64,000 nucleotides of DNA, taken from contig CM082596.2 of assembly GCA_040954595.2 (NCBI GenBank), positions 591,468 through 655,467 of the forward strand. Reading direction: 5' to 3'. A model generated the notes under the pieces. The model saw only the letters and a program-made list of their open reading frames with translations, made no database searches and was not told where the DNA came from. This DNA comes from Balanoglossus misakiensis (taxonomy: Eukaryota; Animalia; Hemichordata). A program made the position numbers and the translations under genes. Of this stretch, positions 100 through 59,952 are shown piece by piece (positions within the stretch are counted from its first letter, which is position 1; each line of letters starts with the position of its first letter).

Positions 100-7038
<6,939 letters not shown>

Positions 7039-13863: not shown

Positions 13864-21974
<8,111 letters not shown>

Positions 21975-34061: not shown

Positions 34062-37000
34062 TCAATTCACAACTCCTGAAATGAGGTCCTCGGAATAACT
34101 TTGCAGAGGAACAGCAAATTTTACATAGCAATGTTGATCGTAAGAGACGTATGTCCAGGCTGAACAGTCTGTGGTTTCTTGACAGAGTTTACAACAGTCC
34201 TGCGCAGAATCCAAAGTAATCGGTGATTGTGGAAGATCGGAGCCCCGTCGATCGGTGTCATATTCCAAACTGCATCCCAGAGGTTCTGAAAGCAAAAGTA
34301 AGTGCATTGTATTTACTTTGAAAACCTCCGAAAATGTTCTCATCTGAGAGGATTTTACCCCGTTTTAAGACGAAGAAAAGAAGAAAACGCTAAGATACGC
34401 CATTTATCGATACTAGTCCATAATGTAGGTCAGAATGACTGTATACGTTTAATTTCCTCGTATACTGTAAAACACTTTATTTTCGCGAGCAATAATTTTT
34501 CGCGATATACTCAAGAGCCAAAAAGTCGCGTAAATTTTTTTGAAGATATAATGATGCAGTGAATGAAATAAGAGAACGCAAAAATGAATACTCGCGAAAC
34601 AGTGGCCTCTCTTGATATCGTGAAAATTTCAACTCGCGAAAATAAAGTGTTTTACAGTAGTACATGCTTGCCATCGATTCATGTTTATTAGATTAGACTC
34701 AAAACCAAGGCTTAGATAGGCACATCATTGCTTGCTGTTAGAGTTAGACTTGTAAGCGTGACGGTGTTTCTTTGTCAGACTGAAAACATATTGAACAGTG
34801 TTACATTATCACCTGTCAATTGTCACTATACCAGTAAATTACATTTCCTTAATCGACTTTCAGTCTTTCAAATCTGCAAGACGTTAATATTATTGCCAAA
34901 GGACTCAAATTCCCCAAGGCCATAAGCTAAGCAAATACATTTACATCACAGATATCAAAATTTCCATTAAAACTGGTCAAGGTTTTTCATTTCTGACACT
35001 CCGGTTTATTAAAGGAGACTTATTCTGGTTTACCCATCGACGAATTTGGCAGTTACATGTATACTGTTTTTTATGCCACTCGCATATCTAATTTCAGTTG
35101 TTATGAACAGTTCAGAACAGTTCATGCATTACTGAAAGTAATAACATCCCGCTGGTGTTGGAAAGTTTTGTCTACAAATGTGTTATTTACCTGTGGTCTG
35201 TAGAATTGTTGTTGAAGTCTTTGTGACGTGGCTGTGGTCTTCTGGTGTGGTCATTGAGGACGGATCCGAATCGACATCTTCATTGGTTTCTGTGGTCAGA
35301 GGAGTTCCAGTCTCCTCCAGTGGTGTGATGAGAGTTGTCTGATCAGGCGTCTCAATGTGGTCGCTTGTAGATATAGTGACAGTTGAGTCTGCAATTGGAG
35401 GTCAGAGTAAAAGATACAGAGACGACGTCAGCAATAAAAACAAAAGAATTTTAGTATTCTATAGTGGAAAAATGAGTCCATGTGCTCAGGGAATCAGGAC
35501 ATTGACCACCTATATCCATTCCCCAATTAACAACCAGTGTTAGGGTTTAAGCGTGATAGGTTGGCAGATCTATAAACTGTCCCAGAGCTTTGCATAGCGC
35601 AAAAGCTGTTTTCATGACACGAAATTGATAGCAAGTCTGATTTATTTATCACCTGTCATCATGTATGATAGATCTAATTACTTGAATTTCATTGCAGTGT
35701 ATCAGCAAATTGCCAAGAGTAAATGCATGCAGTTATCATCTAAGGTGTTACCATGACAATAACGCTTTAATACTTCCCCAAAGACGAGAGTTTTTATGGT
35801 GTCTAAAACGCAACAAAGAGCGCATCTTTCTCATTTTGGGGATTGAATGCGGCTGTCAGTGAATTACTTGCCCATTACCACAGCATGGCGTTTCCCCACA
35901 TTTCCGTAAAGGACAACCTCTCTTTGACGCAGAGTGGGCAATTACAAGCAAAGATGGATTCCTGGTTTTCAATAACGTGTCTGTTTTCTCAATACCTGAA
36001 CGAGACTGGGAAAAACACAGGACCATAAACATGTATTAAATACTATACTAATACCTTGTGCATCCAGAGACATTTCTCCCTCGTTTTGTATCCGAAACCA
36101 ATAGGAGTCAAGTTCTGTTGCCATCTCCATGTCACGATTGCTGCTGCCTGACTCTGTTGCCACCGATGAATTGCCATAAAAATATCCATTTCCATCATTT
36201 CTTTCTGGCACACTTCGAGTTGGCTGATCTGTAAAAAAACATCAACATAGAAATGTACTAGAATGTACATTGCATTGTGGTCTGTCTCAAAGGTGAACAC
36301 TATGCATAAAAAGGAGATTCATTTCTGAAATCACCTCTATTGGGAAAGTGGAGTCCAACACAGTCACTAATATCTTCCAAATTGGATATAAAATCAATAT
36401 TGAAGCGCAACAATGCAGATAATGCACTTCTTAATCATATAATTGATTGTATTATCGCGTAGAGTGATAACTAATTCTCCAGAGGGGAGTTCTCTGCTGG
36501 AGGTTTCCTTTGTTGGTTTTTAATACTTCCCTTGACTTTCTGATCATCCTTTTACTGTCGTGTAAGTGTTATAATAGATGGTGGTTGTAAATTCATGTCA
36601 ACATGCTGTTTTATGTGCGTTGCTTGTTTTTTTATTGCTTGGTGACTACTGCAAGAACTTGTAAACGTTCCTTTTCACATGCTGGTGATTTCATGAACAA
36701 CTATCTCACCTTGAATGACGGGGTCACACGTAGGCCTACGACTTCTACCATGGCAGTGATCTTCAAACACAACCTACAATCATATACATGTAATGTAAGA
36801 ATGAAAATATAGGAATATACCCCACTGAACGTTTTACACAAATAGTTGACTCGTTTGTCATGGTTTTGCTTTCCATCCAATACTCCCTGTTTATAAAAAA
36901 AAACTTCTCCCAAGAAGCAATTTGTTTTCTAATGAGGATTAATAAGTGTATGCGTTTTCTCACTCCGGAAAACCACTTTCCCTTACTTTAAATTGAGGTT

Positions 37001-38451
37001 TTAGAGAGTCTAATTTGCTACCAAGTGAATGATTTGTGTGTGATGTCACATCCGGGTCTTTGACTCAGATTGTGTAGACAGCCGAGTCGCTTGAATTGCG
37101 TTCAAAGAGTCACTTCCTTCGTTTGGTGCTTGTCTGAGAAACTCGGGAAATAACACGCGCCATGCAGATTTGCCACAACAATGTCTAAACCTCAGAATAA
37201 TATCCATGCAGGCTTAAAACGTACAGGTTGTTCAACCTGTCTTTTTGGATCATGGTAATGATAATGGTGATATAACATCATCAACTACATTAGTGGCAAA
37301 TTTACGAGACAGGTGAATACGTTCATAATCTGTGTGTTTGGTGGTTAATATAGCATCCATTTTAGTCTCTTTGATTAAAAAAATTGATTGACACGCCAGA
37401 TGTTTATGAAAGTTTGCCATCACCTAATGCATGTACAACAAGTTGATTTACGACATGATAAACATGTATATAGCTTGTGTTGCTTTTGTGTGAAACAACT
37501 ACATTTTCGGTGAGTTAATTAAAAGGAAAACTGTAAATGCAATGTGGAAACTTGATGCTTTTCACAATCACCAAAAACCTTAATCACAGGAATAAATAAT
37601 TGTAACGTTCTAAGCGTCGGAGTTGCATACGTTTTTGTAAAAATGCTATTATGATCCCAGAGGATTTATTTTGATGATCTCTTGCGGAAATACTCGCAAG
37701 GTTAATAGAATCTGTCAGTTACTAGAAGATTCACGTCACAGAGATTTGAATATCGTTTGAAACTCCTTTGGCAGTATTGTTAACCATTTTAGAAATGATT
37801 GCTATGTGTAGCTACTGCGTTTTCTTGTTTGAATCCCTGAAACGTGATAAAATGACCAGTATGGAGCTTATCCGCACATTCTATAAGTTTAGATTCAATC
37901 AGTACTGTTATTATGGGAAACTGACATTGTAGAAAAATAAAATTAGCGAAACTAATACCATATGTTCGATACAGAGGACAAACGCCATTTATACTATGAT
38001 ACAAGGTGATGCCTGTATCCAGCCTGTGTCACATCTCAGCTCTGGACACTAAAGTGATCCCACCATGATTGGCCATTAAAGACAGAACAAGACAAGATGT
38101 ACTTACCCTCATTGAAACCAAGTGTCCAAACATAACGTCATTATCGCAAAGAGTAAAGAAACTCGTTCCATACTGGTACACCAGTTCACCTACCGAGGTT
38201 TCGCTCAACTCACAGTCATTGCTGAACCTCTTGAAGTTGTAGGAGGAACATCTATCAGACAGGAGGCACATGGAAGTGCATTGTGTAAGGCTGAACACTT
38301 GGCTGGATGAAAACACATGGCCACTTAGTCGGTTGTTTCTCACTCTGTAATAACCCATCTGGACAGGATCCTCTGAATTCAAATCCCGGCAGAAACTCTC
38401 GGCCATTTCCAGCAGGACGGCAATGTTTACCACTAACGCCAGTTTCTTCAT
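34062..38451 (-). CDS. Secreted PAN - linker - Thr-rich stalk - PAN/apple protein, 334 aa
   Basis: Exons 38451-38107, 36773-36710, 36228-36055, 35388-35191 and 34285-34062 splice in phases 0,1,1,1. Signal-like N-terminus; PAN pattern QCTSMCLLSDRCSSYNF..CELS; apple pattern DCCKLCQETTDCSAWTY..CYVK...ISG. Confidence 0.8.
34465..34657. mobile_element. 193-bp MITE with perfect 25-bp TIRs and TA target duplication
   Basis: CTGTAAAACACTTTATTTTCGCGAG ... CTCGCGAAAATAAAGTGTTTTACAG, with TA on both sides; a TA duplication suggests the Tc1/mariner superfamily. Confidence 0.9.
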
Positions 38452-39222: not shown

Positions 39223-42200
39223 TCAACACTTTGAAAACTGGACACTTGACTCAAATACAGTATTTTCATCACAATTAAAAATTGTGTATAAAATTGTACG
39301 ATTTGTAACCGATCTTACGAGAACATCCACAGGGAAGACAACTGTGCCAATATTTCCTATGGTGAAGTAATTGCTGTAAGAACCACTTGTTTTACGGTTA
39401 AGGCTATGATAATGTTCATCTTTGAAGATTGCTATATAGTCGATAGGATAGCGTGTGTCATATGCCAGAAGTCCGTAGAAGTCGAGAGGACATGGCGGCA
39501 TGAGCTGTTGAATGAGACAAGACAAGTGAAAAGATATAAGAAACACTTGCACCAAAGCTCATTCCTTAGTAGACAATATTATAAGGACGCAAAACAGGGA
39601 TAAAGTTAGCATAAAATGAGTGCCTACCTTGAACTTGATGTATATATTGTCTGGGCACGCCACCGGCAGTGACGTCACTGTATACGAACTAACAGGAGTA
39701 TCTGCAATGACTTTATGAACTGCGCTGGTGATCAGCATATCTTCTGATTGACATCCGGGACAATCAGACAACACTCTGACAACTGCAGAGCCGGTTGGGC
39801 CAATCAGATGTAAGCAAGCACCACACATCTGTTCAAGTACAACATTGCCATAGTTACTGTATAGGAAATGATCTGCTTAAGAGGAAAGAAAGTGAATTGT
39901 CCATTTATTCATAGAGGGCGTAATACTATTTTGAATATAGGCACGAATACATGACATCATTTATATGCTGATCACATATAATTAACATGCTACCTACCGC
40001 TGTGTGATAAAACACTTTTACAGCAACAGTCATTCTGAGTGGATCTTCGGGTGTATTGCACGGCGACCCGTTGATGGTATCATCAACTCTCACCATATAC
40101 TTTGTAGTCTCATTGCGACAACCATGAAATGCCAGTGCTACATGGAAATAGTGAAAGCGAGCGAAGATTAAGATAACAAACACAGTTGCATGCTCTTCAG
40201 TGTCGTTGGACATAAAATACGATGCAATCAAAACTTGAGTCTTCAGTTTAGGGTAATGGGGTCAGACCACAATTCCCGGGTCTTAAAACAGGGAAACAAA
40301 AGCGACTTAAATTCTTTAAGCAATATCTCACCTTGGTTGTTGCATTGCTGACCTATATATCCAGCCGTACATTTACAAATGAATCTTTCAGGAAAACAGT
40401 CATTTTCACACACTCCATTGTTTGCACATGGCCCATTGTTACAGGCACTGGTATTCTGTTGGAGAGACACAGTATATATAGAGAATATATTGGTGAAATG
40501 TCAAGAGAACTGACCATGAATAGACTCAGAAATCAGTCAGATAGCCCAGATTAATGGCTTTGAACGAACAGCTTGAACACAAGCTCTACCCCCAAAGCTT
40601 CATCTGGGCCATCTAACAATCCAGACATTCAAGTGAGTTCTTGCCTCAACGAGTTCTTAATTTCACAAACCGGCACCCGCATGTTTTTCTGGGATATTAC
40701 TGGTCACAGTGACAATACTTGACGGAAATTTCTCTGGAAATTACAGCAGAGACAGACGACGGGATCTAGAATTGATGTTTAATCGAGCGAGACAGGCCTT
40801 CTGGCATTACTTCCGCTTTTAATATAGTCAGTTATAATCGAATTGCTTCCGTAGTGATTTTGCAGTTTTAATCAAATTTCATTTTAAAGGTAAAAGTTCA
40901 CATTCACGTGTGCAGTGTTATTGGGGTCTGAGGGGGAGAGGGGGAGAGAGTCTATGTATAACATGCACCATAAAATGGAATGCAAGAAAGGGTATCCATA
41001 ATTAGACGTCAAACACAAATGATCTTTGAACTTACATTTGTCATTTAATCTACTTGCAAATGTACTTTAATCCATTAACAGTTCAGCGATCAACTGTAAC
41101 ATGCAGTCACCTATACATGCACCTTGTTATAAAATATGAAGTTCATGACATCACTGATGAATTGCAAGAAAATCCATCACGCAGAGCTTGTTACACATAA
41201 TGTCACAACACATTGTGTAGATGGTATTGATGAAATAAGTTTGAGTTCCGCTACCTTGTTCAAAGCCGAGCTATTCTAAGGCAATTTCACGTCAGCCCTC
41301 TGGGAAATTTGAACTTCATTTCACTGAAATTATTATTGACAAATAGCTCATACATATGAACGCACTTTTAATGCTAAAGTTTTAGATACACTTAATATGA
41401 TCGTTTTCCTTTCCTTTTAAAATTAATAATATGAAATTAGTCGACAATGGTAGCACACATTTCACGACGTATTATAAAGTGGTAAACTTCTCTATATCCA
41501 TTCTATAGAGCAGGTTGTCTGTTGTTTATCAGTGGGCGTACAATGTCGTTTGAGCAGGAGATTTATCACAAACCTCTGAATCATTCTTACTAATGATAAA
41601 TGCGATATCTAGGCATAGGATGCAATTGTGAAAGCGTTTTGCCCCTTGGGAAATAAGCGAGACAAATTCCATAAATTCAGCTCATAATATATAATCAAGC
41701 AGACAGAATATGACTGGCCCTCAACTTGTCGTCATTTGTTTTAAGGTGAAAGGTGTTCGGTTCTCATAAAATTTCACCAATTCTCATTTATATTATGCGT
41801 CATGCATTACCAAGAAAAGCAACGTACTTCAGATTAAGAAAACTAGAAAGGGAATGACTCAAGTCGCTCACTGATTATAGTGTTTTTTATGAGATGGTCT
41901 ATACTTAGTATTACATGAAATGCTGTCCATGCATTCCTGAGCGGCCAGTCTTTTAGTGATATACTGTCACTTGTCACTATAAATCCAATCAATTTAGTAG
42001 ACGCTGACACAACCAGATACTGTAAGTCTTCATCATGTGCTGTATCTATTCTCGGAAAGACTAAATTATATTGATAGCAGCGAGGCTGTAATCTCGGAAT
42101 GCAAGTGTAGGATGGATTGATAGGATATGATTGAAGAACCAATTTCCAATGAAAATGACCCGCCTTTCTTATAAAACATGTTTACTACAGATGTCAGAAA

Positions 42201-43873
42201 TTGTCTTCTGGAAATTGCACTGGTAATATTGTGGTATTCTTTGAAAAAAAATGATACAATACATTGCTTAAAACTGACAGTGAAATTAATCAGTTTGAGC
42301 AAGCAATAAATCTGATGATGCATGAAACTGCCAAAAATCACTAGTTCGTTATAATTAACTTTCGTTCTGCTGATATGACGCGCATAAAATTGTGTCTCCT
42401 AGTCATGGTGTTACTTTTCTTCTATCCAATATTTCACAGACATTAAAGTAGAAAGATTAACATGCTCACAACATAATGGACAATTGTAGCTGTAGGGAGA
42501 GTCGACGAACTAGATCTAGATGCAAACATGATGTAAACAAACAAAACAAGACAAGACAGGGCAATGTTAGCAGACTAATATTTATGTAATTATGAGCAGC
42601 ACACACGTATATGCTCCTCAATATAACCTCCTACCAGAAGTATCAATATTTTCATAAAAGAGGCATTGATATAGAGATAGTCAAGATCAAATTGAGGTGA
42701 AAGGTGTCAAAGACGTGATGCAAATGAAAAAGACGAGTGATTGCAAGACTCAAAGCTCAGTACACCATGCTTTGCGATAACACTTGCCAGATAGAAGTAG
42801 AAAATAGATTAAAATCACGATGGAAATAGACAACTTAAGTGGTTTGGAAAGGAAGTATCGCTGTTTGGTTCCAATTTATGTCGACAAATAAATTTACCTT
42901 GGTTTGTTTTTAACGTCATACTTATAAAGTACAGTTTACGTGTGACAATGATAAGATGGCCCAGTCAAAGCATCAGACCAAATCTCGCGAGATTAACCGT
43001 GATTAAACTTAATGAGCTTTTTCCATTAAAATGCTTGTTTTCCTTACTCCAATAAATGCCTGTCCGTTTGTTCGTTTGCAGATATCACAGAAAAGATCAT
43101 GCACGTTTTCTAAACATGGTCATACATCAATGTCTCTCTTCAGACGTGTTTGATTTTCACAATTGGACATAAGAATATTGTAAATAGTTATTTCCCATAT
43201 GTTGCGGTTAAATTTTTACTTGCCCTAAGGCAAGCATGAAATTCCTACCATCCGATGTTTATTCTACGGTTTGTTTTTAATTTCAACGACAGTGCAGAGG
43301 TCATCTCTGGTTTGAGGCTGAATCTGAAATAAGACTTAGCTACAGGTTATACTCGGATTGCTTGTATCGCCGGAAACAAAATTTAGGTATTGGACCAATT
43401 CAAGGTTAAATCATCAAAAAACAAGGATTTTCTTAAACATGACATAGTCTTCATGTCATGAGTCCTTCGTCAATGGTTAATTCTCTTTAAACAAAAGACG
43501 TCAACGTATTTCAGAGACGGAAGATGAATGCATACATCACCTGATGTAAGTTGAAGTACACATTTGCTTCAAAATACCAAACGCCTACTTCAGAGAGGTA
43601 ATCCTGTGGGCTCATCTCTTTTGTCGATGTGCTTAATTCACACCTGCTTTCTCGTCTCCAGTAGTTGAAAGACTGGCATTCTGGATATCTGTTGCATTCC
43701 TCTCCACATTCCACGGCACTGAAAGTTTGCAGGACCCTGGAAACATGATTGGAAAGGTGTTTGTCTTTGTAGATTGGTAACATGGCATTGTTGGACAGGG
43801 TCAGTGCAGCACGGAAATGGAACACAAATCCGAACAGGATAAGAAGCTCTTCTAGTGCTCGCAGCCGAGCCAT
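39223..43873 (-). CDS. Secreted PAN-EGF-expansin-like protein, copy 1, 359 aa
   Basis: Exons 43873-43541 (signal plus PAN), 40455-40332 (EGF), 40137-39998, 39828-39628 (CGACLHLIGPTGSAVVRVLSDCPGC, double-psi barrel) and 39504-39223 (CBM63-like, ending VQFSKC); phases 0,1,0,0 are compatible. Confidence 0.8.
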
Positions 43874-46800
43874 TGTGCTTTGAATTGCGTCACTGCACTC
43901 TTCAATTGCAAGCTATGATCACATATGCCGCCCACAGCAACTTCCAACAGGCGTTCAGATATTATGAGTGTTTTGCCCGGAAATCACTGCCTTTCTGATT
44001 AGTTGAGAGTTACTAAACTGCGCAGGTCACACTCACTCATTCATAACGTTTCTGTCTTTCCAGCCACTCAAAGTATGCTCCGTTTATCCTGTTTCCATCG
44101 TCATTCTTTTCTTATTTAACATCATCAATTTTAAGCAAGTAGCCTACTCATTTATGTCAATCTCAAGAATTAAGAGCAATACGGGTATTTACTATCCTCT
44201 TTTTAGATACACAAAGAATTGTTGTTCCCATAAACAAAAGCAAAACCTTGATGAGCAGAGTTGTGAGCAAAGCGCCCTCTAATGATCTTCCCCACTTTTT
44301 CAGTCGCGGTAGAAGTGCCTCACTATTGGTTTATAATGGTTCACGATTTCAAAGTCCAAAAAAGTTAACTACATCAGTCAATGCGGGAATAAAGCGCCTC
44401 ATACAAGCAACTTTGTTACTGTAGTCATGGTTTACAACAATCACAGTGACGTTGACAATAAAATGGTGTATACTTACAAGCAGTCTATGATCGAGATACA
44501 CCTATACACTATAGCGTGTGAAGTCTGTACGCTGCAAATCTTGACTTGTGTTCAGGTGTTTGAGTTTTATAGGTTGAGATTACTGAGCTTAGGCACTGGG
44601 ACCCGAGTTTCTTAACTTCTCGAATATACCAATCATTAAGGATGTTGTGTTCATGCAAGGCAAAAAGATTTATTACTTATTTCAAGAATTGTAAAAGCTG
44701 CCATAAAGAAACCATTGCAGTAACCGTCAATCAATCATGCTTTGAATAGTGTACAGGCTGACCTGAAGGATTGGATAGCCATGGCACATTTTGCTTTTGT
44801 TGTATTCATTGGAATCTGTTCTTCACCTTTGCTTCAAGGGCATGTTCAGGAGACCGACCACAACACGTGGAGGGGGGTGGGTGGGTAGGGGTAGGTTGCT
44901 TCAATCCATGTTGGATTGTTACTATCTGGAAAACCTTGACTTGTTCTTTATATCTGCAAATATAAACATCTTTCAGTTATCAATCAAACAGAAAATAAGT
45001 GCTTGTTGTGAGAACTCAAATATTAAATTCGTCATGAGAGAAGTCATGATCTCAATCACGCTCCCGCGTTGTAAGACCGAATTTGGGTCGACGTTACACC
45101 GTTTGTTTACTTGGGGTATAAATTGCAATTTTCTCCTGGATTTAATTTTGATTAAATAGGAGATTGGTGTTATTGGAAAATTTTGAGCTGGTTTGGAAAC
45201 TGTCAAGAAATAAGCGATTGATGGCTTCTAGTTGCATTTCCCGAAATAACACCACTCACGTGACTGATATATTTTACAAAATTGCTGTCTATCGATTAAT
45301 TAGATTCTGGAAACTGGTATTTACAAAAAACAGATATAAAAGGAATGCCTTCCCCTGATTTGAGAGACCTTTTTTTTCACCCACAACTGCTTTTAATCAA
45401 GTGAAAGCATGTTGATGCATGAGATTGTACGATCTACGGAATTGACGATGGAATTGGTGATTACTGCAGGCGTTGAGACGTCATTATTGTTCCTAACATT
45501 TCTCATCAATCACCAATATACTAGAACACTGCACAGTGTGGTTCAGTACTTCGCCCTCAAGATGAATTTAATTCCTTAACCATGATCGAGATGAAGATGT
45601 ATATACACCACCTAAAACAGACAATATACGGAAATAGGCGTAGCGATTCAAAATTCCAAGAATACTCGAATAGAATTTATGGATGAGATATAATACAACT
45701 GCCTTCTTGCTTTAACTGTCAAGGTAAAGCTGATCCTGTTAAACCTATCAAAATATGAAATAATTTCATCTACACTAATCAGGTTATAGATTGAAAGTTA
45801 TTCATGAGCAATTGTTATGTATTATACTGTGCATGATGTTCATTTGAAACATATTTTGAATGACAGATTTCATTTTCAAGACTTGTCGTACCTGCGTTTG
45901 CCACTAAAATCTGCTTTGTTTCGAATAAAAAATTGAGTTTTTATCAAATTCTGTCTAAGCATCTAATCATTACATTATCGGATCCTGTAGGAGTAATTTT
46001 CTCTCTATTGAAAGAATTGTGCATTCTCTGTACATGTGAATTATCTTGTCACTATTCAATGTCATGACAACTGCATCATCTAATTAAAATGTACATCTTG
46101 ACACATTGTTAAACATTCATTTGAATTCATCTTAATTGTAATGGGGGAAATCTCAATGGTGTGAATTCGATTGCTTGGAGTGAAAACCAAACCAGTAATT
46201 TTGGTAATTATTGGTGTTAGAAGACATTTTCATAGAAACAACTGCACTTCTTTTAATTCACAACACGCATGAAGTGATCATGGAATAATTAAACAGTCTG
46301 ACAAATGGCATGTACTTGAACCAATCGGATTAGGGGTCACTTCAAAGTAAAAAGAGTTCAACTGTCAATCATTCCTAAAGCTTAAAATCAATGTTGCGCG
46401 CAGACTGCTGTTATAGCACCCTGGGTCTCTGGGAATTAATTTGCATAAGCAATTACCAAGAACCATGGCAAGATCACGTTTTCTTTCCTTAATTCGTCGA
46501 TAAATGGAGCTTAATTCATGTCTTGTTATACCCACGGTTTTGTCTAATGGAGAACTATATATATGAAACAAAACGCGTAATTCAACCTGACAAAAAAATG
46601 TACTACGGAAACATAAGCTCACTTCCCTTACTTTATCAATTGATTGAAAGACGGCACACAGTCAGAATAATAGAATTCAAATCAGGAAATATCAATTAAG
46701 CAGTGCATCTTTGATAATATGCTTGGCGCCGCGCGAGAGTGGACTTTTAATTTTCTACGCCTGCAAGTCTCTAAAAAATCCATTGAAAGAAATTAAGTTT

Positions 46801-49051
46801 CAACCACTGTGTGCATTCTGATACCTCTTGGATCTGGTGATAACAACAGACTCATCGGACAACTGTTCACGTATTCTGATCAGTGAACTTTTGGGTGAAA
46901 CGCTTTTTCTTAATCGTGTGAAAAGAATCTCTATGTCATATAGAGTTGTGGATGCTTATAATTCTGTTTTCAACTCACGTCAAGCTCTTCTCACATGCAT
47001 ATCGACCATTTGCAAGATTAAAATTTATGTGACATGTTAGATTATAAAAGGATGTCTAAATATTAGTGTTGATTGGGGTGGAGAAGGTTTTCAATTGCTT
47101 ATTTGCAAAAAATTAGTACGGCAATGAATGTACAGATTGAAAAATTGAAACAATTTATCGGAAAGACGCCTAGTTTGTGATTGCCGTAAATAATGACGCA
47201 AGTGGTTAACGAAGTCCACTTAACTTATAACAAGCAAGTCTTTTCACGTAATAACCTTTCTAAGCAAAACATATGGCAGCTAGTGATGTTCAACAAATGG
47301 TTTATCGTGTCTTTCACAAAGAGGATAGAGGTATGTACATTTTGAAACAGATTCATTTTAGAGTTAAGAGATTTGTAATATAATAACCATGTTCAAATCA
47401 GGAGGTATAGTTCTGCTGACATGCATGTCTATTATAGAGTATAAGCTTTTGAATTAACACAATTCCAATCCCTAATAGGAGTGCCCGAAGACAATCTCAT
47501 CTTAGTCCATCCAGACTCAATCTAGAAAGTCAAATTTGTAGTGTGTTGAAGGGGAGACGGTGTTTGCTTTAGTCGAACTATTGGAACCGATAAACAATCA
47601 AAGCTGTGATAAAATATAATTCAAATATTTAAAAGACCTAACTGGTTGGGAACAGTTTTTCCCTGAGGTGCATATTTTTACTTGTAAACTATACTTTCAC
47701 ATCTGCCATTGTTCTTAATTTGTGACGTCATCGCGACTGGCGGTCTCTTGTCAAGACTGAGGGACGCCGTGAGCTGTAAGAACACCGAATCCATCATCAG
47801 ATCGACCTAAATGTTACCGCTTACAGAAAGCATATTATTCATATCGATGGTGAACCGATGTGTACAAAGGTGACCAGTGGAGTGCACTTTCCATTTAACT
47901 AATTCAATACAATCACTCACAGTACATGATACATCTTTTGCGGTACAGGCGATCAAATACAAGCACACATTTTCTGTGAGATAAAGTTGGTAATCTATAT
48001 CAATATGAGCACTTCTTGTTACAAAATATGACGATAAATTCTCCATTTCAGTAAATGTCATGACTAATGGTCTGCATCGACGTGTTTACAAATCGATGGG
48101 TTGGTGGGAAATTGTTAGGATGTTCCTTTGATGTATTGCTTGTATGCATTGAAAATACAGACTGTGGAAATTCATCATCTTTATCTTCTGGAAAACATCA
48201 CAGCGTGACAGCATCGTATTTGTACATTAAGCAGTTCCATTTTCACACCGTATTTATATCACCAACCACAGACATCGGTACAAGGGCACGGATTTAGACG
48301 GAACGTAGTGCAGCTATTTCAATCAAGTGTCATAACATATACACCCGCAAGACGTCAATATATCTCGTATCAATCTACACAGATGATCAAGAAACAATCT
48401 TTCCTCGGTACTTACATAGACGTTATTAAGGTGATGTAATTCAATAAAACAGCGTTATTTAAGAGCTGATGGAGGCGAGAAACAGGTTTGTGTAATTTTA
48501 AAGCCATAACCGTCATCTCCTTGAGAAGTGTTAGTGAATGTATGTTAATGCCATCTAATGGTGCATGGCCACCTGTCGTAACGAATAAAAATTCCTCCAT
48601 CAGCAAACAGTGGCAGGCAGATCACTCTTTATCATCAAAGTACACATGTCACACAATCTCAAGCCTGTTTTATTCACGAAAAAAGCATTCCCTGATTTGA
48701 GGTATAAAAAGTGCATAATCTCAATACATACACGTAAATTACGTTCGTATCTTCAAACATGATACTCGTTCTTTAATATCTACACGACTTTAAGTTTCCA
48801 TGAAGCAAAAAATAAAAATAATTAATTGTAATATTTATCTGTGTTGTTTGAAGGTTCAAATTTACAGTGGGGTTACTGTGTTCGAAAAATTAATTAAAAA
48901 TAGTCTATTGACCTAATATTGTTCTTGGGGGTACACTCACTATAAACATTAAATTTGCTTTCTAGTCATTTAGCAAGAGAATTTGTCCTGCAGGGAAATC
49001 TCCACAGATAGCTTAACAGTTGGACATTATTTAGGGGTGTAGAACAATGAT

Positions 49052-52000
49052 CTAACAGGGTGTAAACTGACTGTTTGTATTATAAATGATAGCATCTTGA
49101 CAATTGGCCAGTGTATATGTGACAGTTTGGTTTGTTGAAGAGTGTATCCTGATATCCGTCGGTAAGTTGATTGCGGTGGGGATGTTGAAGTAATTGCTGT
49201 AAAGTCCACTTGTTGTTCGCACAAAACTGTGCCATTGCGAGATTTCCAAGATTTCCATGCTTGCAATCGGGTGCAGTGAGTCGTAGGCGACAAGTCCATA
49301 GAAACCCAAGAAACACGGTGGCATCATCTGGTAGAACAGAAATAAACAAACAAAATTATGCAAAAGAAAACATACACAAATAGCCCTTGTTTCGTACTTT
49401 GGGACATCCTGTAGGACCCAATCAGGTTTTTGAATATAGATGGGTATGATGTGTCATTCTGCTCTATAGAGAGAGATCAACATGAAGCTTTACATGAGAT
49501 ATTTACCACAGGGGCTAGGCTTCTTACAAACATGAGTAAAACAATAATAACAGTTTAATTCTAAATGAAAATGAGCAGTATATGACCTTCAACTTGATGA
49601 ATCCCACATTTTGGCAGGCCACTGGTTGTGCTGACACAGTAAATGAACTGTTTGTATTGTTTGCTATGACATTTCTGACAGCTTCGGTCACCATCAAATC
49701 TTCATATGTTGCACATCCGGGACAGTCAGACACAACCTTTACCACCCCCGTCCCTGTTGGACCAGTCAATTCCAAACAAGCCCCACAAACCTATAAGATG
49801 CAGAAAGAAGATGGAAGATGGAAACTAACACACACGTTTAACCACTAATGCCAACTGTTGACATCACTGTGAAATTATGAGTAGACAGTTGAAACATTTC
49901 TTTCAATTAGCATATTGTCACACAGAGAGTCGTTTTCACATACGTCAGTGTCTTGGAAATCCTTTATGGCCACCATCATTCCATCTGGGTCACTTGGTGT
50001 GTTGCATGTCTGACCAGTGATGGTGTCATCAACGCTAACATTATACACTGTAGGACCACCAAGGCAACCGTACACTGTGGACAATAAGAACAATAAATCT
50101 TTTATCATTTCACAACATACTTGGCCGACTGCATACTAACACTCATTTCAGTGGACCGGTCTGAATCATTGGGATGGGAAAGTGGCTGAATGTATTCACC
50201 ATTAGAGAAATGACTTTCGTAAAGAACTCTGCAAATACACCCCACCTTCCTGCTCGCATCGCTGGCCGCTGTAGTCTGGTGGACACTGGCAGATAAACCC
50301 ATCAGAACTACAATCTTCTTCACAGACGCCGTTGTTATAGCAAGCATCTTCAGAACATCTACCGTTGGACTACAAGCAAGAGCACATCAAATGTGAAACT
50401 TTATTAGTCTAGCTAAAATGGTAATAATATCACTAAACACATGATTGACAAATCCGCAAGACTCGTTTATAGATAGAAAGTGCCACTCCTCTTTCTTTGC
50501 AATAAAGTCCACGACCTTTGCTATCAAATGTTAGATCAGATAATACACTTGTACGTGCAGAGTGATTATGCTGTATGTCGACTGGGTTTCTACCATCTTT
50601 GGTAACAAATGTATATTAGTGTAAAAGGGGTTAAATGATTGGTACAGGAACAACCTGAACACCACATGACAACCGTAACATTTACCAGACTAGCTTACAT
50701 CACACGCTGTGACCGGATTTGGGAATAATATAAAGAATTAAATGGACCATCAGGCTGGGTTCAATTTGTTCTGAGAATTGAGTAATGTTCTGTCATCAGT
50801 GAAGGGCACGCACAGTTTATGTTATCGAGCCTAACTCTGATTGACTATGGACTAATGGTACTGTTGAGATCCAATTTGAGAATGGTGGTACTGACGATAT
50901 TAGTTTAGTTAATTGTGCTTTCAATCAAATCCGTCATTCCTACAGAGACATAACACTTCCAATATGTCAGTTACGGGAGCCATAGAAAAGAACTAGACTC
51001 TAGAAATTACATTTTCTTTAAAGGTTATTCACTATAACACTCTCGAGGGGAACCTTTAGTGACACTTTAATGGTTAAGGTGTCCAGGTCATATAACGGCC
51101 ACAAATTCTACTTAATGATATGGTCTTATGGGGAAACCAATTATGATTGAGGTCTCAAAATAAAACGATTTGGAAATATATATTAATACTTCAGTCTTTT
51201 CATGATTTTATCGCGTGTGTATTCAATTATTGAAGTGAGCTGATTCTATTAAACACGCGACTAAAATTAAACATATCTTTGGCCTAGCAGCTGTTTACAT
51301 AAAGGATAATTCATATTGTCATATATATACACATATGCACACATATACGATGTATATGTGTGCGTGTGTGTGCCTGCCTGCCTGGACAACTCTGTTTGTT
51401 GTTGTTGTTTCCTTGAGAACAACTGTGTACAGGCCTACTTATCACGATAGTGGCTCAGGTGTGACCAAAGGGCTGATTTTGTCGAGGTGATGAACCGTGG
51501 CCAATATTGCCGTGTGAATAATATTATGATGCAATTTTGAATCCAAGGCTATCAGCCGGGTTAATAGCTGTCGACATTAAGTAGATTGTAAGATTTTCAC
51601 AGATTTGAGAGGGTGCGGTTCCCTTCTTGTTTCTGCGATGTGGCCATTTTTATTTGTTACTTGTGCATTTGACACCTGCTGCAATATCCCTGAATTGAGA
51701 TTGTAAAGATTGGCACAAAGAGTATACGTCACTTCAAAGGAAGCGCCATCACAGTCGGGGAGGGGGTGTCAATATTAAAAGACGTCTTATTGACAGTTAT
51801 AAGCTTGCAATTGCGACATGTTTTCAATTAAAGAAAAAGTGATACTGTGGGGAGGTTTCCAGTTTGCGTGATGGTAACCATATGGTATAAGGTGCATCTA
51901 CCACACTGTGTAATGACCATGTGTTATACTCTCAACTAAACTGACAATTGACTATTGTCAGTTGTTCCTTAGCATAAATCAAGACTTTGATATATCATAA

Positions 52001-55000
52001 TGTATATCTCTGCACCATATTTTATCAAATGTGATGAGTTTTTCATGCCAAAATGCGGTCTAGAACCACACTGGCACTCGTTGCAATACGACTCAAAGAA
52101 GCGGCGATATCGGGCAATAACCTCAACGTGAACAGTGTCACTGTTGTGCACATGTCTGCTCTGCAATGTTAACAACAGGAAGTATCACTGTTTGAATTAA
52201 CAGAAAAATATATAATAATGTACTTCATGAAATTACCAATTTCCAAACGCCATTGAAAGCTATTGAGATATTATAGAACTGCGTGTTTTCTTCATGATTC
52301 AGCGTCATGCGGTGATACAAAGAGAATATTGGATTGGCTGGCAGTGTGGTAAACATATCAAATAATACCTTGTGGACAGGATTTTTATTTCGGGAAGTGT
52401 ACGACAGGAAACAGACTTGCCTGATGTCCATTACATTTTCAATAGGTTTTAATTACTGTTATTGCAATGTTGTTGTATCTCGGTTACAGTTTTTCTGTTT
52501 AAAACTTCAGAACCACAACCAAATCAAACGAAAGCAGCCTTGTACCTATGAATTGTTTGAAATGAGTCGATCACGAACCTTGAATTACTATCCCCCATTA
52601 TAACACATCAAAATTTAAAGACCCCATACTACTACATGAATTTTGAAAGAGTAACCGAATGCTGTTATATAGTACGCGGCAACCTCAACAACAAAGTCTG
52701 TATGGATCAGTCTTCGGCATCCTTTGTAGAAAATATTGGAAGGAGAAATTAAAACTGATTAGCCATTTTTACTATAAGACCACCTAATAGATTCGGAAGG
52801 TGAAAATCAGCAAAGTGGCTTAAAAGCCAAAACAAGTCCGCACAAATTACAGGTTCATAAAACCCTTTAACGCAACTGTTCGGTGACGGAAAAGTCTTAA
52901 TGAATGCATTACCGCACTCTACGCGTAAACATGAACTACACTGTCCTTTATAGAACCTTCCTTTTAAAGTACTTTGTCCCCGTCTCGTAATTTGTTTTTT
53001 TCAACTCAGGAAATTTCTCCCAGTATATATCACTTTTCTTACAAAATATTAAAACGAAACAAGGTACAATTTATATGGCCAATTTGGTCATTGCCGAGGC
53101 AGCATATGTACTGGAATGAACCCATTCTCTCTTCCGCCTCGAAAAGTGTCTATTAAGTTGTCTTGTATTGGCGCTAAGGTCTCTGGCGCGACACATGGAC
53201 AAACAAACCTAACTTTGTAACAATGACATTTATCGATAGCAGTTATAGAGGTGTTGTTATTCACAAAATTGTCCGCTCCAATTCCAGGTTTGATTGTGAA
53301 AGGAAAAGAACACAAGACCATTTCATTAGTGAGCCCAATCATTCCACTTAATGGAGTCGACTGGCAAGTTGTAGGTGATGTGGAAATCAGTTGATCGAAC
53401 AAACATGGTAAAATACCAAGGTTACTTTTGTGGCTTGTAAGACAATTATTTAGTGTGGGCATTGTTGGTAACATTTGGGTAGACTGTATACTTCTGCAGG
53501 TGGCTTTTTCACAAACACTCGTATTGGTCAACTAAAAACACTGTGCGCAACGGTTATACGTTGTGTACGACCACTAGGTTTCATATTAGACTCCCAGTTG
53601 TAAAACCCAAAGTAGAGATCATAAACCTGAAGCATTGCTGTAATTATTACTGAGGTAATCGAAGGATATAGTTTTTCATCATTACGGAGATTAACACGAT
53701 CGCGATCATAAACAAGTACCGAAAGACAGGGTTTATGACATGGTTATCGTAAAGCTCTACTTCACTGCATACAGATATGTAGTCATCAATTTGAAGAAAG
53801 GGTCTGTTACGTTGATGGATTTGGATCCTCATGCCGTTACATCATCTTTGTCTGTTTTATTTCTTGTCCTCATATGTTACTTCCTAATCCATGTGTGCAT
53901 GTGTGTGTGGAATATCAAAATTTTGCGAACTTAAAATTCCAAGTGACCAAGCAACGATGTCAACCCTGAGCACAATTAAGTAAAATGGTGACGTTCTACT
54001 TCAAAGAAAAAGGAACAATGTTGACAACCCATGCGTAAAAATGCCCGAAAACATTGATGGATAAAAGTAGCCATCCGTGTGATTTCAATATAAGTGCCCT
54101 CAACTATTTAAACTTTATAGTCGTGGGTCATAAACATTTTTTCTGCTGTAGGAGTTTTACGACATAATCAAGTTACGCCGTTGATGCAATCAAAAACACA
54201 AACCTAACTCAGTGTTGCTGTGAGAAGTTATAAAATACACAATGTCGTACAGATTTTTACCTTAGAATTATATCATACGTCTAGATTAATTCTGATCCAG
54301 TAGTCCATGAATCAAGGTGTAAAACACGAATGCGTGTACAGCATCACATCTACCCTATTTTGCTGCGAGCTCTAATTTCAAAAATTAAAACGTTTTACCT
54401 TGAAAGAAAAACTAAGAGCTGCTACCTTCATGTTCTGAGGGAAATACCCTTTTCAACTTCACCACGATGTGAAGTTTAAATTTGTCAAAGTATGGAAACG
54501 ATAGCAAATATTGACTCTCTGAAGTGAAAATAAATACCGCATTAGAATCTAATGTCTGTAAATGGTGCATGTAATTATCTAGGACACAAAGTGGAAACTG
54601 GGATATTTTTTTAAAATGCAAGCAGCGGTTGATGAAACGAGCAACGGGTTGTTAAATGGACTGGCAAATTTGATCACACACCTCGTGTGGTTACAAATTG
54701 AAAGCTTGACAGGAGCTGAACATTTCTTTCATTAATCCAGCATGACATCACCATGGTAACCACCAAAAACTCAAAGTAATCAGAGCGATGGGTCGGCGCA
54801 TGAGGGAGAAGGTGTAAGTATTTAACTTCAACAAAAGTAGGAGTTCGTTTCACGCCCATCTTTGCGGTTGCTTCTGATTCAGTTCCTTTGCAATGAAATC
54901 TCTGATTATTTTCATTAATGTACAAGTGGTGACGAGCACAAACGAGACCAATGCAGAATCAACCAGTTCAGTGTCCTCAAGCTGTAAGTGCTGAGATGAT

Positions 55001-58000
55001 CTTGTCTGAGTTATCAACGGGAACTTTTTTGACAGCATCTTTCTTCAATATGCACTGAAACTAATAACAATTTCTATGTGGGGTGTCCTTGTCAATGGTT
55101 ACAATGCCCGTAGCAAAAACAACTTTTACTTCAAACTGGAAGGCGATGGTCTAGTCGTCTAACGCATGTGCGAGAAATGGGTAAGCGGTACCTTTGTATC
55201 AAGTTTACGAGCTCAATGTTAGTCAAACCGGTCTTTAGTATCTGCAGGCACTAATATTGCAGCGAGAGACACCTGTGCTCGATATATTTTTTAGGATTAA
55301 TGTGACATTATTGCGAACTGACATGGCCGCCTTTGTTTCACGTAAGGCAAACGGATATCAATAATTCACAAGATGTTTTTTCGCAACTTCATTATGATTT
55401 CCGAGCCCGAATGAGCATAAGAAAGCTCCATAGCTAAGTAGGCACCTCATACTCTGAATTGTGCATTTGTTTTTCATTTCACTACATTTTCATTTTTATA
55501 ATATAAGCTTTGATTTCATTAGTTTTTACAATGAAATTTTAATGTAGGCCTAAGCTTCAGTCATTTCCTCAACAGTCTATCGTGTTGAAATAAAGATAAA
55601 TCAATCAATCAATCAAGCAATCAATCAATTAATTAATAATTAATAACGTGTTGAAATCACAGATATGAAACATCTTTGTCTGTTGTGTCTACTGTTTGTG
55701 ATCCTAAATGTATCAATCGTACAGAAATCTCTGGTTATACCAACAATGCCAACATTATAAGACAAGCGCATGTGCAAGTGGTCGTAAGACCTTTTCTGGC
55801 TGAAGTAATAAAAATGTGCTGTGACGTCAATAAAACGTGTACGAAACACTCATATGAAAACAGAGTAATCACATCCACTTTGTGCTTTTTTAGCGAGTAT
55901 GGCTTCCGGAAGTGACCCTCAGTAGGCAGACCGGTTACAAATCATTGCAGGAAATGCGTCCTTGATTGATTTTTGAGACAACCATTTTCTTGATTAGAAG
56001 AATTAGTCAAGAAGACAACGTAATATTGATGATCAATTTATATTGATGCTACACTAATCTCATGAAATATTTACGGAGTAAACATGCTTTAAAGAACAGA
56101 AAACTGATTCAGTTACACAGCAATTGGTTACCATGGAAACATACTTTATTGTGTTGTATTTGGAGACAATCACGATAAACAAATAATTCACTTTTACCTC
56201 TGCCGTACTGAGACAGCAGCGCTCTCGGTGATCGAGAGAAATATCAATCTTAATTGATTAAAGTTAACAGCCGGAGGAAAATTTGAAGTTAAACAGATAG
56301 AACTGGGTGGAAAGCGTACGGTAAATTACCGACGTGTTGCGACTGCGCACTTGGATCAGAGTTTATTTTTCATTTGTTTTGGACGTGGTTGTGAATATAA
56401 TAAAATGACCATTTAATAAGTCTACCTTATTGCATGTATGATACTCCCGGGAAAGTAAAACACCTATTATTTTCAATCACTCTTGTGAAATGCAGATGAG
56501 GCAGTCATCTTTGAAAGCGTGTTAAAGTGAAAACTTCCGGTTGTTTCGAATTTCCTTTTTCACCACGATCAATACGCATAAAATAACAATAATGCATCGC
56601 ATTTACCAACAATGTCTCAAGCCAGTTTCAGTAAGGTACTTCGTCATCACACACACACCCCAATAATGGAAGTTTCGCTGAGGAAAGACCTGTGCTTTTG
56701 AAGAGGTAAACAGATACAATTCAGGCCTCAGCCAACCAGCTATATGAGAAAAACAGGGCAAAACTGTCCTCATTATTATAAGATCTTGCATGTGTAGTTG
56801 TAAAGAGAAATAGCTATCAACGCAACATTTCCATACCTAATTGAATCAAGAATATACTAATATCTCAGATAAAAGACCACTTAACCATAAGAATCCTTTT
56901 AAACAGCCGCGTTGAATAGACTCGCCCGCCAAATTTAATTCAATTAACGATATTGTGAAAGATCTAATGCAGACCAGACTGAATGGAAGAAACACTTGGT
57001 TCTACCATGACCCAGGATGTGAACTTGCCTAACCCAAATTGAATGATAAGTAGGTCAACTTTATTAAAATTGACAGTCGTATTATAGTAATATATAATGG
57101 GTAAATTCTCAACCTGGAATAGGTTAGAATGCTTTAAAGGAGCACCTCCTATATCAGCTTCATCAAAAACATTCCATGCCAACAAGAACTAATGTATGAA
57201 CCAGTGATTGAATGAGTTCTAGTCCGGACTTGAAAAAAATAACAGAGTCATAGTGTAAAACAGAGAGGGCTAAAGATTACAGAAAAGAATTGAAACTTTT
57301 GTTATAAACTGTGATCCTTGTTCAGAGCAAACATAAAACCTGTTCTGTGCTGAAGGAAGAATGTTTATTTACGAAACTCTTAGTCATCCTATTTATCGGC
57401 ATTGACAAAGGCAGACGAGGAGGACCATTTAGAATTATGACACTGTTTATTTTACATCCAGCTTCGGGTCTTTTAACCTTCTTGGAAATCATACTGGAGT
57501 AATAACATCGACTTTCATCAGTCGTGAAAATCTGTTCCACGTTATAGTTTATTGCAGACTCCGGAGGGCTTCACGCCTCATTCTAGAGCTCTGTATATTT
57601 TTCCGCTCCACAGAACAAATTGTAATCGTATCAAACAAGCTCCAAAAAGGGTGCCTTTTCAACACACCTCAATATCGTATCATAATATTGCATCACTGAT
57701 TAATTAAAAACCAATGTTTGTTTCTGTTAAACTTGTGAGAAGCTAAAAATAATTTGCTTTAAAAGTGACGCCGACAGACCTACGGTTCATTTAAACGAAT
57801 GAGTATTTTAAAATAATATAATGGCAAAAAGGTTTAAAGAATTTGTTGCCATGGATTTACGAAATCAAGATCATTATATCTTGATAGAGTTCATGTAATA
57901 TGACCAGAAAATTTCGAACTGAAAATACATCACCTGAGAATGGCGCCTGGTCGAGGCAGAGAAGTTTAACGTATTGACATAACATCAGGATCTTTTTATT

Positions 58001-59952
58001 GAAAGCTAACACAATGTGTTTTGCAACTTCAATTGGCTACATAAGTTAAATTTGGGTGCATGGAGATCCCTTTTTATCTCCAAGGGCACGTGTAAGAGCT
58101 GGCTAGACTTCCACAGTGTTTTACTCTGAAATATAACATCAGATATCATGTGGAACAAGCCTGAAGGGTGTGTGATGGTCAGGAAAAACAGGGGAAGACA
58201 GTTCTAATAAAATATTTTATCTGCACCGTCTGTTGATTCTGAGTACGGAAGCCATCTATGAATACCAATGAGACACCAGCCTTCACGTAAAGTCCGTCAA
58301 TCTTTATCAAAAGACATCAGAGATCTGTGAGATGCAGACATACTGGCTTTGACGAAGGAAGTTCGTCTGACGCCGCTTCTCAAATTCTGTTCTGTAGCGT
58401 AAATCGACGTAAAATGACGACAATTCGTAATTTCCACGTGGCATAAATACGTAAACAGAGCCCGTGCTCTGTTATCGACTAATTTCCACTTTCAGTACAA
58501 TAAAATTGTTTAAAAACAAACGCCAAGAGAGCGTACAGGAGAAAGACTTAAGAAAGTCACAAAGAATCACGATGAACATTTGCAGAAGGAAATTGGCAAT
58601 AACTAGGTTGGATTATGAGAATGTATCAAAGCGGGAAACAATCGCCCTTTGGTGAGCAAATCTCTTTCATTACAATATCCACAGCAACTTGATATGTTTC
58701 TTGCCATGTACAGCGCGTAATGATACGACAGTGGACATTATGAGCAGAATCTCTTTTAGAACTGGAAGATGCAGACTGGGAATTGAAACGAAAGTGAGAG
58801 TACATTTTTCGATTGAAATGAACCACCGTGACGCTGGCAAATGGTTTTCCTTCAAAGCATCAATTTCACAGATCCCTGAAGTCCATCAATACGTGTCGTC
58901 TTTTCCTGATTTCTTGTTTAACGAGACAGAAACAGAGGAAGTCGCTGTGAAACCATCGCTAAGGTATTGTGTTTCTAAACTCGTGGGCCAGGCCACACGG
59001 TGCCTGTGATTTTCCCTTGTGGTACAATTTCAAATTTCACGTCTTACTGGCAAAGACTATTATATACCATATTGCTCTAACAACATCACAGGGAGCAGGG
59101 TGTTCTACAAGTTTGTAAAATATTACATGTTTCTCTTCTCCATCTCGCAAACAGTCATACCTACAAAGCCATGATATTTATCGTCGCACCATGCTTGCAA
59201 CCTTTTTACTATGTTTCATGACAGGAAAATCTCTTCGATGGAGAAGTATCAAGATTTTTGAAGAAATCGAAGTCTTTTTTAATGTCAACCTTTGTCGAAT
59301 TTTATTTCTTTCCACTTAGACGTTTCAGGGAATGAATTTGATTTCGGAATTTTATTGCTCACAAAAACGGTGATAAATTCCGTATTACTGGTTTATTCGA
59401 AAACACGATGCGGCTCGTGGCACACAAGAGCTAGCTGGAATGTATATATCAAAGTAACTGATGGTGTGTCTGATCGGGAAATGTAACAGAAACATGTCTC
59501 TTTCTCACGAAAATTCATCATCAGTGTTTGAAGCATCAAAATTACTCACAGAATGAAATCTGCCTGAAGTTCAAACACTGATAGATGCTTTTGACTTTCT
59601 CTCCCGTCCAACGTACCTGACATGGTTGAAGAACATCCCTGTAGGAATCAGCCGAAATATACCACGCTCCGTACGATATTACGTAATCCGCTGGATGCGC
59701 CTCTCGTGTTGATGTGTTCAACTGGCATCGGTTCTCTCTTCTCCAGTAATTAAAAGACTGACAATGCGAAATCTTGTCACATTCTCTGCTGCAATCCACG
59801 CTACTGAATGTGTCGAGTTCAACAAAGACGTGATTGGCCAGATACCGGTCTCTGCTCGTCACAAGTGTTGAGTTTTCGAACAGAACACCTCCATCGCTGT
59901 GGTAGAACGTTACGAAGGTGCAGTAAAACAAAGACGAGAACAATTTCTGCAT
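49052..59952 (-). CDS. Secreted PAN-EGF-expansin-like protein, copy 2, 356 aa
   Basis: Exons 59952-59617, 50369-50246, 50074-49944, 49790-49587 and 49327-49052, with the same phases and the same 124-nt EGF exon size as copy 1. Joining the PAN exon across a 9.2-kb intron is inferred from phase and paralogy (shared CQSFNYWRRExRCxL). Confidence 0.75.
55598..55629. repeat. (AATC)n microsatellite
   Basis: Read directly from the sequence. Confidence 0.85.

Follow-up and report, generated by a model that had tools for sequence, protein, structure and literature searches.

Microbial EXLX expansins are among the closest known relatives of the proteins considered here. The literature indicates that Asp82 is essential for their loosening activity while Trp125, Trp126, Tyr157, and Lys119 form the binding surface (PMC12779228), that the Asp82 equivalent is conserved across all expansin-related proteins (PMC12846793), and that their published fusions are with CBM1, CBM2, CBM32, and GH5 (bioRxiv 10.1101/637728). 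Here, we describe two neighboring genes, designated A and B, in a stretch of 64,000 nucleotides from the acorn worm Balanoglossus misakiensis (Hemichordata; GenBank assembly GCA_040954595.2, contig CM082596.2, positions 591,468 to 655,467 of the forward strand; this whole stretch is the window below). Their predicted proteins combine a signal peptide, a PAN domain, and an EGF domain with a two-domain expansin fold whose working surface is largely replaced in both paralogs, the latter feature going beyond the first-pass annotation of the locus. With a probability of roughly 55%, we consider A and B to encode intact, likely spliced and secreted proteins that lack the active aspartate and likely act in mucus or extracellular matrix as binding proteins without loosening activity.

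Among animals, nematode expansin-like effectors and the whitefly EG45 protein are comparable as expansin-related genes attributed to horizontal transfer (PMC11800479). They differ in their role in plant parasitism or feeding and in having another domain order or a single domain (PMC11800479; bioRxiv 10.1101/637728), whereas A and B possess both expansin domains together with animal extracellular fusions. Few animal expansins are known, those of Oikopleura and bivalves, with contamination not excluded (bioRxiv 10.1101/637728). Our literature search found no paper on acorn-worm expansin genes, the supplementary gene lists of Simakov 2015 and bioRxiv 10.1101/637728 being outside its coverage; the main text of Simakov 2015 makes no mention of expansin, and no match occurred in the supplements of PMC4729200 (2 files), PMC12768270, PMC11175523, and PMC11618098. 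In PMC6006793, which matched both expansin and Saccoglossus, the former term refers to nematodes. What is already known is that GenBank/RefSeq labels some acorn-worm genes as expansin-like (for instance, APU50764.1, "expansin-yoaj protein-like protein 170"); what is new is that an Asp-less expansin module has been domesticated alongside extracellular domains of animal type.

Gene structure and expansin fold of A and B

Six-frame reading and coordinate assembly revealed that A (43873-39223) and B (59952-49052) are adjacent on the minus strand and consist of five exons each, with the ATG of B at 59952 and the stop of A at 39223 delimiting the pair. The predicted proteins comprise 359 amino acids (aa) for A and 356 aa for B, and both reading frames are open through to the stop. 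The exons are as follows.

A exon 1, 43541..43873, minus strand: ATG, predicted signal peptide, and PAN (PAN_1 E 1.3e-9; hydrophobic N-terminus; inferred donor)
A exon 2, 40332..40455, minus strand: EGF-like domain (Pfam EGF E 6.5e-5)
A exon 3, 39998..40137, minus strand: start of expansin domain 1, the double-psi barrel (colinear with B and the Ptychodera flava model)
A exon 4, 39628..39828, minus strand: expansin domain 1 core and linker (NF041144 E 3.1e-7; alignments)
A exon 5, 39223..39504, minus strand: expansin domain 2, CBM63-like, and stop (NF041144 E 0.016; 44% identity to B exon 5)
B exon 1, 59617..59952, minus strand: ATG, weakly predicted signal peptide, and PAN (PAN_1 E 1.2e-7; 78% identity to P. 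flava residues 1-112)
B exon 2, 50246..50369, minus strand: EGF-like domain (Pfam EGF E 1.4e-5)
B exon 3, 49944..50074, minus strand: start of expansin domain 1 (colinear with the P. flava model)
B exon 4, 49587..49790, minus strand: expansin domain 1 core and linker (7WVR E 4.8e-5; NF041144 E 2.8e-7; HHalign register)
B exon 5, 49052..49327, minus strand: expansin domain 2, CBM63-like, and stop (model with a predicted local distance difference test [pLDDT] score of 85.7; best match, Clavibacter expansin domain 2)

All eight introns are GT-AG, with phases 0,1,0,0 in each gene, and the spliced proteins are 46% identical (E 3e-115). Four DNA matches were found between the two genes, every one overlapping exons, and tblastn detected no expansin copy beyond A and B in the 64-kb window. 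We infer the splicing of both genes from sequence together with the colinear gene model of P. flava. The PAN_1 scores of exon 1 (38.1 bits in A and 31.9 bits in B) are above the gathering score of 21.4, as are the Pfam EGF scores of exon 2 (23.5 and 25.7 bits) above 21.5. Signal peptides were judged from N-terminal hydrophobicity, and no transmembrane stretch follows the N-terminus in either protein. The first-pass annotation, made from the sequence alone, had proposed tandem paralogs of signal-PAN-EGF-expansin architecture, in which an intron-split, duplicated module is joined to PAN and EGF exons; the exon assembly, the shared intron phases, the Pfam matches, and the fold evidence below bear this out, and the expansin motifs that it quoted for both domains are present in A and B. 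Moreover, the module yielded a nonsynonymous divergence (dN) of 0.41 and a synonymous divergence (dS) of 1.32 between A and B (a rough count, near saturation), indicating that both genes have been kept under selection. The cysteine count of A is odd (21), suggesting that its exon 1/2 junction is perhaps slightly off or that one cysteine was lost; no candidate for a cysteine-bearing mini-exon was found in intron 1 of A. Separately, a 147-codon open stretch without a Pfam match lies at 53091-53531 (minus strand) within intron 1 of B and is probably chance or a decayed fragment.

The profile check proposed with the earlier annotation succeeded for PAN_1 and EGF but not for the expansin part, as Pfam DPBB_1 and Expansin_C matched none of the six exons 3-5 of A and B, nor the P. 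flava ortholog. The NCBIfam model expansin_EXLX1 (NF041144) matched exons 4 and 5 of both genes (4/4), all below its cutoff (those of B with E values of 2.8e-7 and 4.7e-4), and the P. flava ortholog reached 62.5 bits against a cutoff of 100. Among known structures, the best PDB match of B exons 4 and 5 (E 4.8e-5 and 0.0076) and of the P. flava ortholog (E 2.2e-14) was the fungal expansin 7WVR. The proposed comparison with EXLX1 gave a clear result: the model of the P. flava module (pLDDT 88.5) aligned with BsEXLX1 (3D30) at Z 23.3 and a root mean square deviation (rmsd) of 2.2 over 195 residues, and 12/12 Foldseek matches at E<=0.001 were expansins. The domain order agrees with that of the EXLX proteins of Bacillus (3D30), Talaromyces (7WVR), Streptomyces (9MS5), and Clavibacter (4JCW), at Z 22-23 over ~190-195 residues. 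In addition, the model of B exon 5 was closest to Clavibacter expansin domain 2 (4JCW; Z 12.6, rmsd 1.9, 86 aligned); among 48,161 chains, its top six matches were expansin or pollen-allergen domains (Z 12.6-8.0), with the next unrelated chain at 5.7. An Atlas-made model of the P. flava ortholog, independent of the alignments used here, showed template modeling (TM) scores of 0.81-0.85 to expansin clusters. These models indicate that A and B carry an expansin fold, with a predicted double-psi beta-barrel domain directly followed by a CBM63-like beta-sandwich. A word search of B exon 5 against longer proteins scored 0/21 candidates, and A exon 5 found no usable match in a feature search of the Atlas. 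As a side observation, the module has matches at TM 0.85 in two Atlas clusters of 945 and 957 aa that have no taxa on record; they may be other fused expansins, and the Atlas assigns PF29515 to one 945-aa cluster.

Replacement of the active aspartate and the binding platform

To the extent of about 25-30% identity, the branch containing A and B resembles microbial EXLX proteins and keeps the CGxC and CPxC cysteines, Thr12, and Tyr14; it differs in the lack of Asp82, Asp71, Lys119, Trp125, and Tyr157 and in the fusion to PAN and EGF. The residue counts, in BsEXLX1 numbering, cover 13 modules from acorn worms and 116 further rows, of which 36 are library hits and 80 are prokaryote loci. Asp occupies column 82 in 113/116 rows outside acorn worms, whereas this position is Leu in A, Met in B, Met in P. 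flava, Ile in Saccoglossus kowalevskii, and Val in all three modules of a giant Saccoglossus protein (described below). The corresponding minus-strand codons are 39735-39733 (Leu231 of A) and 49694-49692 (Met230 of B). Asp71, likewise Asp in 113 of the 116 other rows, is Ser in A (Ser220), B (Ser218), P. flava, and S. kowalevskii. The same register at Asp82 was obtained by phmmer with the Clavibacter D78N mutant as target, by MAFFT, and by HHalign (probability 99.9), and it also fits the boundaries of strands and helices in the P. flava module model. We rejected another register, in which the Asp of an ED pair would occupy position 82, since phmmer, MAFFT, and HHalign put that Asp two residues earlier.

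The domain 2 platform has changed as well. Lys119 (Lys in 100/116 other rows) is Met or Gln in the four modules of the PAN-EGF branch, being Met in A and B; Trp125 (aromatic in 105/116) is Asp in A, Gly in B and P. flava, and Met in S. kowalevskii; and Tyr157 (98/116) is Ser in A, B, and P. flava and falls in a gap in S. kowalevskii. Thus, among Trp125, Trp126, Tyr157, and Lys119, only position 126 is still aromatic (Phe) in A and B. Because two defining expansin features, the active Asp and most of the platform, are lost, A and B are not classified here as members of the expansins despite their expansin build, and with the essential acid gone, loosening by either protein is not expected.

PAN is a protein- or glycan-binding module, and EGF domains serve as spacers. 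We propose that the PAN domain and the remodeled expansin surface would act as two binding ends separated by the EGF spacer, so that a ligand would be cross-linked rather than loosened. This ligand may be a polysaccharide or a glycoprotein, with detrital or microbial polysaccharide, mucin, and protein as candidates.

Several observations weigh against such a secreted, non-loosening binding protein or against parts of its evidence. In A and B, Thr12 persists, positions 14 and 126 hold Tyr and Phe, respectively, and a Tyr within a short insertion, one residue ahead of position 157, could stand in for Tyr157; together, these residues may preserve part of the glycan surface. N-terminal hydrophobicity is clearer in A than in B, for which the signal peptide is weak. 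The input alignments for the fold models consisted mostly of expansins, so that the models and the sequence match do not count as independent evidence, and long branches could have drawn the branch of A and B and the modules of the giant protein together in the tree presented below.

The retained Thr12, Tyr14, and aromatic residue at 126, together with full retention of both expansin domains, would also suit a digestive helper that, by means of substitute residues, binds and loosens cellulose from algae or detritus in a deposit feeder's gut; mucociliary capture is how acorn worms feed (PMC13554239). We regard this role as improbable, considering that all seven modules of the branch have a hydrophobic residue in place of Asp82, that two of the three platform aromatics and Lys119 are changed, and that the tandem acorn-worm expansins (see below) are better candidates for it.

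Another function to be considered is innate-immune recognition of microbial wall polymers such as chitin, beta-glucan, or peptidoglycan by proteins secreted to mucus or coelomic fluid. The predicted secreted PAN-EGF layout is compatible with this role, and some bacterial expansins were named peptidoglycan-binding by their PDB depositors. Moreover, the B module is acidic (isoelectric point, 4.3), and acidic fungal expansins favored chitin (PMC12779228); however, that trend came from proteins with an intact site, and the A module (6.05) is not strongly acidic. Only two copies are present here, and the ortholog, conserved at 70% identity, pairs one to one, unlike in a fast-expanding family. Immune recognition is thus unlikely, although less so than a digestive role.

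Acorn-worm relatives and origin of the module

A and B form one branch of a wider acorn-worm family, partly labeled expansin-like in databases, that the first-pass annotation had not described. A similarity search over 1.84 billion representatives gave 66 hits, and the 21 that were looked up by name comprised 5 from acorn worms, 2 from Mastigamoeba, 1 from Basidiobolus, 3 from bacteria, 1 metagenome expansin without a taxon, and 9 unnamed; a second search with 6 hits added Glandiceps talaboti. A profile search with the two exon 4 sequences identified one protein among 490 candidates, P. flava XP_070569325.1 (uncharacterized; 359 aa), encoded on a 44-Mb contig. It aligns colinearly with the spliced B protein (359 columns, 3 gaps, 70% identity). 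In S. kowalevskii, the relative is XP_077870173.1 (expansin-like protein 5), a partial model covering EGF and expansin. These identities and the tree below point to a likely closer relationship of the window to Ptychodera than to Saccoglossus. Both relatives are predicted gene models made independently of those of A and B and carry automatic labels only; they share the orthologous branch, the domain order, and the loss of Asp82 with A and B. No ortholog of A occurred among the hits obtained.

Three layouts were recognized in acorn worms, i.e., PAN-EGF-expansin, secreted tandem expansins, and a giant multidomain protein. The tandem expansins (P. flava XP_070533744.1, S. kowalevskii APU50764.1, and Glandiceps LOC144434331) represent three acorn-worm families and pass the EXLX1 cutoff with 333-341 bits. 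Like A and B, they are predicted to be secreted, have an expansin fold, and belong to the same animal group, but they consist of two modules without PAN or EGF, have a near-canonical second module, and fall on a separate branch. In the first module, Asp82 has given way to Lys or Asn, while the second module keeps it in two of the three representatives; this residue varies between Asp and Asn among Saccoglossus records, one Saccoglossus variant keeping Asp. Judged from these residues, the tandem proteins are candidates for an active animal expansin. In this family, genes with Asp82 and genes without it coexist in one genome, a natural comparison for asking what the fold does after loosening is lost and whether deposit-feeding deuterostomes produce cellulose looseners of their own.

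The giant S. kowalevskii protein XP_077862127.1 (4825 aa) contains CUB, Sushi, EGF, HYR, ephrin-receptor-like, and pentraxin domains and three Asp82-less expansin modules at residues 1272-1470, 2164-2365, and 2541-2742, within Thr-rich stretches. Outside these modules, it presumably resembles SVEP1 or Uninflatable. The threefold use of the Asp-less module in such a protein, together with alteration of most of the glycan surface, would be in line with the module having no glycan role at all and instead mediating protein interactions or acting as a spacer within an extracellular protein of developmental or neural function. In the same direction, the Schizocardium single-cell table (PMC13554239, supplement 5) contains a gene labeled Expansin-YoaJ as expressed in at least three rows, and this gene marks juvenile neural cluster 2 (adjusted p 2.6e-266; 11% versus 8% of cells). 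The record indicates that at least one family member is transcribed, but the cluster 2 enrichment is small, and the gene has a Pfam DPBB label, which the branch of A and B does not reach, suggesting that it is not an ortholog of A or B and is probably another family member. We consider a purely non-glycan role about as improbable as a digestive one.

The earlier annotation had called for a phylogeny of the module. The tree was based on 49 modules after 14 of 63 had been dropped (near-duplicates, short sequences, and poor matches) and contains no plant, ascomycete, stramenopile, or mollusc row. Results revealed that the seven Asp-less modules form one branch (support, 98/93), within which A is sister to B plus P. 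flava (100/99), with Saccoglossus outside (100/98), suggesting that the duplication into A and B predates the split from P. flava and postdates that from Saccoglossus. The six tandem modules group separately (96/89). The tree's tally of a single change for acorn worms was disregarded, as it leaves out the 34 ungrouped rows. At the deep branches, a single clade of all 13 acorn-worm modules was neither shown nor rejected (approximately unbiased test, p-AU 0.52), and the joining of these modules with two Mastigamoeba modules was not rejected either (p-AU 0.47).

The proposal that A and B are domesticated animal genes was supported; the horizontal acquisition and the glycan binding suggested with it stay at the level of proposals. 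We consider a horizontal origin of the acorn-worm module plausible and somewhat favored. The tandem modules match bacterial sequences best, with up to 46% identity, and codon third-position GC content (GC3) is 0.42 in A and 0.48 in B compared with 0.42-0.49 in neighboring genes, indicating that any transfer is old. The criteria for horizontal gene transfer in Simakov 2015 include a microbe-nested tree excluding other eukaryotes and absence in other animals, as well as a defined locus among animal genes with introns; A and B do lie at such a locus and have introns. A scan of prokaryote genomes with a Saccoglossus module gave 329 pattern matches, 0 of them confirmed.

A serious alternative, although somewhat less likely than transfer, is that the module descended vertically from an expansin of early eukaryotes and disappeared from most animals. 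The unrejected grouping with Mastigamoeba is compatible with it, one tandem module is nearly as similar to an amoebozoan protein (42% identity) as to the best bacterial row (45%), and expansins occur in Amoebozoa, fungi, and stramenopiles and are annotated in Oikopleura and bivalves (bioRxiv 10.1101/637728). Such descent would require many losses, considering that all five named animal hits among the 21 looked up, and one further hit, are from acorn worms. The best matches also speak for bacteria, although the bacterial rows were picked by likeness to one query and are skewed to Myxococcota (59/80 loci).

Under a tentative scenario, to which we give less than even odds, one bacterial expansin was taken up before the split of the main acorn-worm families, at least 370 million years ago (Simakov 2015), and gave rise to both an active tandem expansin and an Asp-less, shuffled extracellular binding domain. 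As part of the reading favored at the outset, an ancestral acorn-worm expansin would have duplicated; one branch would have kept a near-canonical site and led to the tandem expansins, and the other would have lost Asp82 and been shuffled among animal extracellular domains, producing the PAN-EGF layout and the CUB/Sushi/EGF/HYR giant, with A and B then arising by tandem duplication. If the single bacterial uptake is true, a microbial wall loosener became an animal binding module that is used like EGF or CUB.

Genomic neighborhood

The genes flanking A and B are of animal type, encoding kinases, a Band 7 protein, a leucine-rich-repeat (LRR)-caspase protein, and a rhodopsin-family G protein-coupled receptor.

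About 177-7215, minus strand: kinase-myosin gene, myosin III-like by eye
About 14075-21974, minus strand: kinase gene, ULK4-like by eye
24654-27014, plus strand: two-exon LRR and caspase gene (LRR_8 E 3.8e-39; Peptidase_C14 E 1.2e-45)
About 27985-30206, minus strand: Band 7/SPFH gene
34062-38450, minus strand: PAN gene directly downstream of A, with a signal and PAN_1 exon from 38450 to about 38107 (E 5.8e-9)
63264-63998, minus strand: rhodopsin-family G protein-coupled receptor

Contamination or a mis-joined gene model could be raised, since the P. flava and Saccoglossus orthologs are themselves predicted models. This explanation is highly improbable in view of the eight spliceosomal introns with shared phases, the animal neighbors and the GC3 values matching theirs, and the independent colinear model on the 44-Mb P. 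flava contig. A and B are thus genuine animal genes and not contamination. With intron-split, duplicated genes amid animal neighbors and relatives in three acorn-worm families, animal expansins are real for one group.

The first PAN of the gene downstream of A is weakly similar to the PANs of A and B (tblastn E 1e-4), suggesting that a local PAN cluster may have supplied the N-terminus of A and B. This downstream gene has further exons near 36230-36070, a Thr-rich exon near 35390-35190, and a final PAN_4 exon near 34284-34062 (E 3.5e-11).

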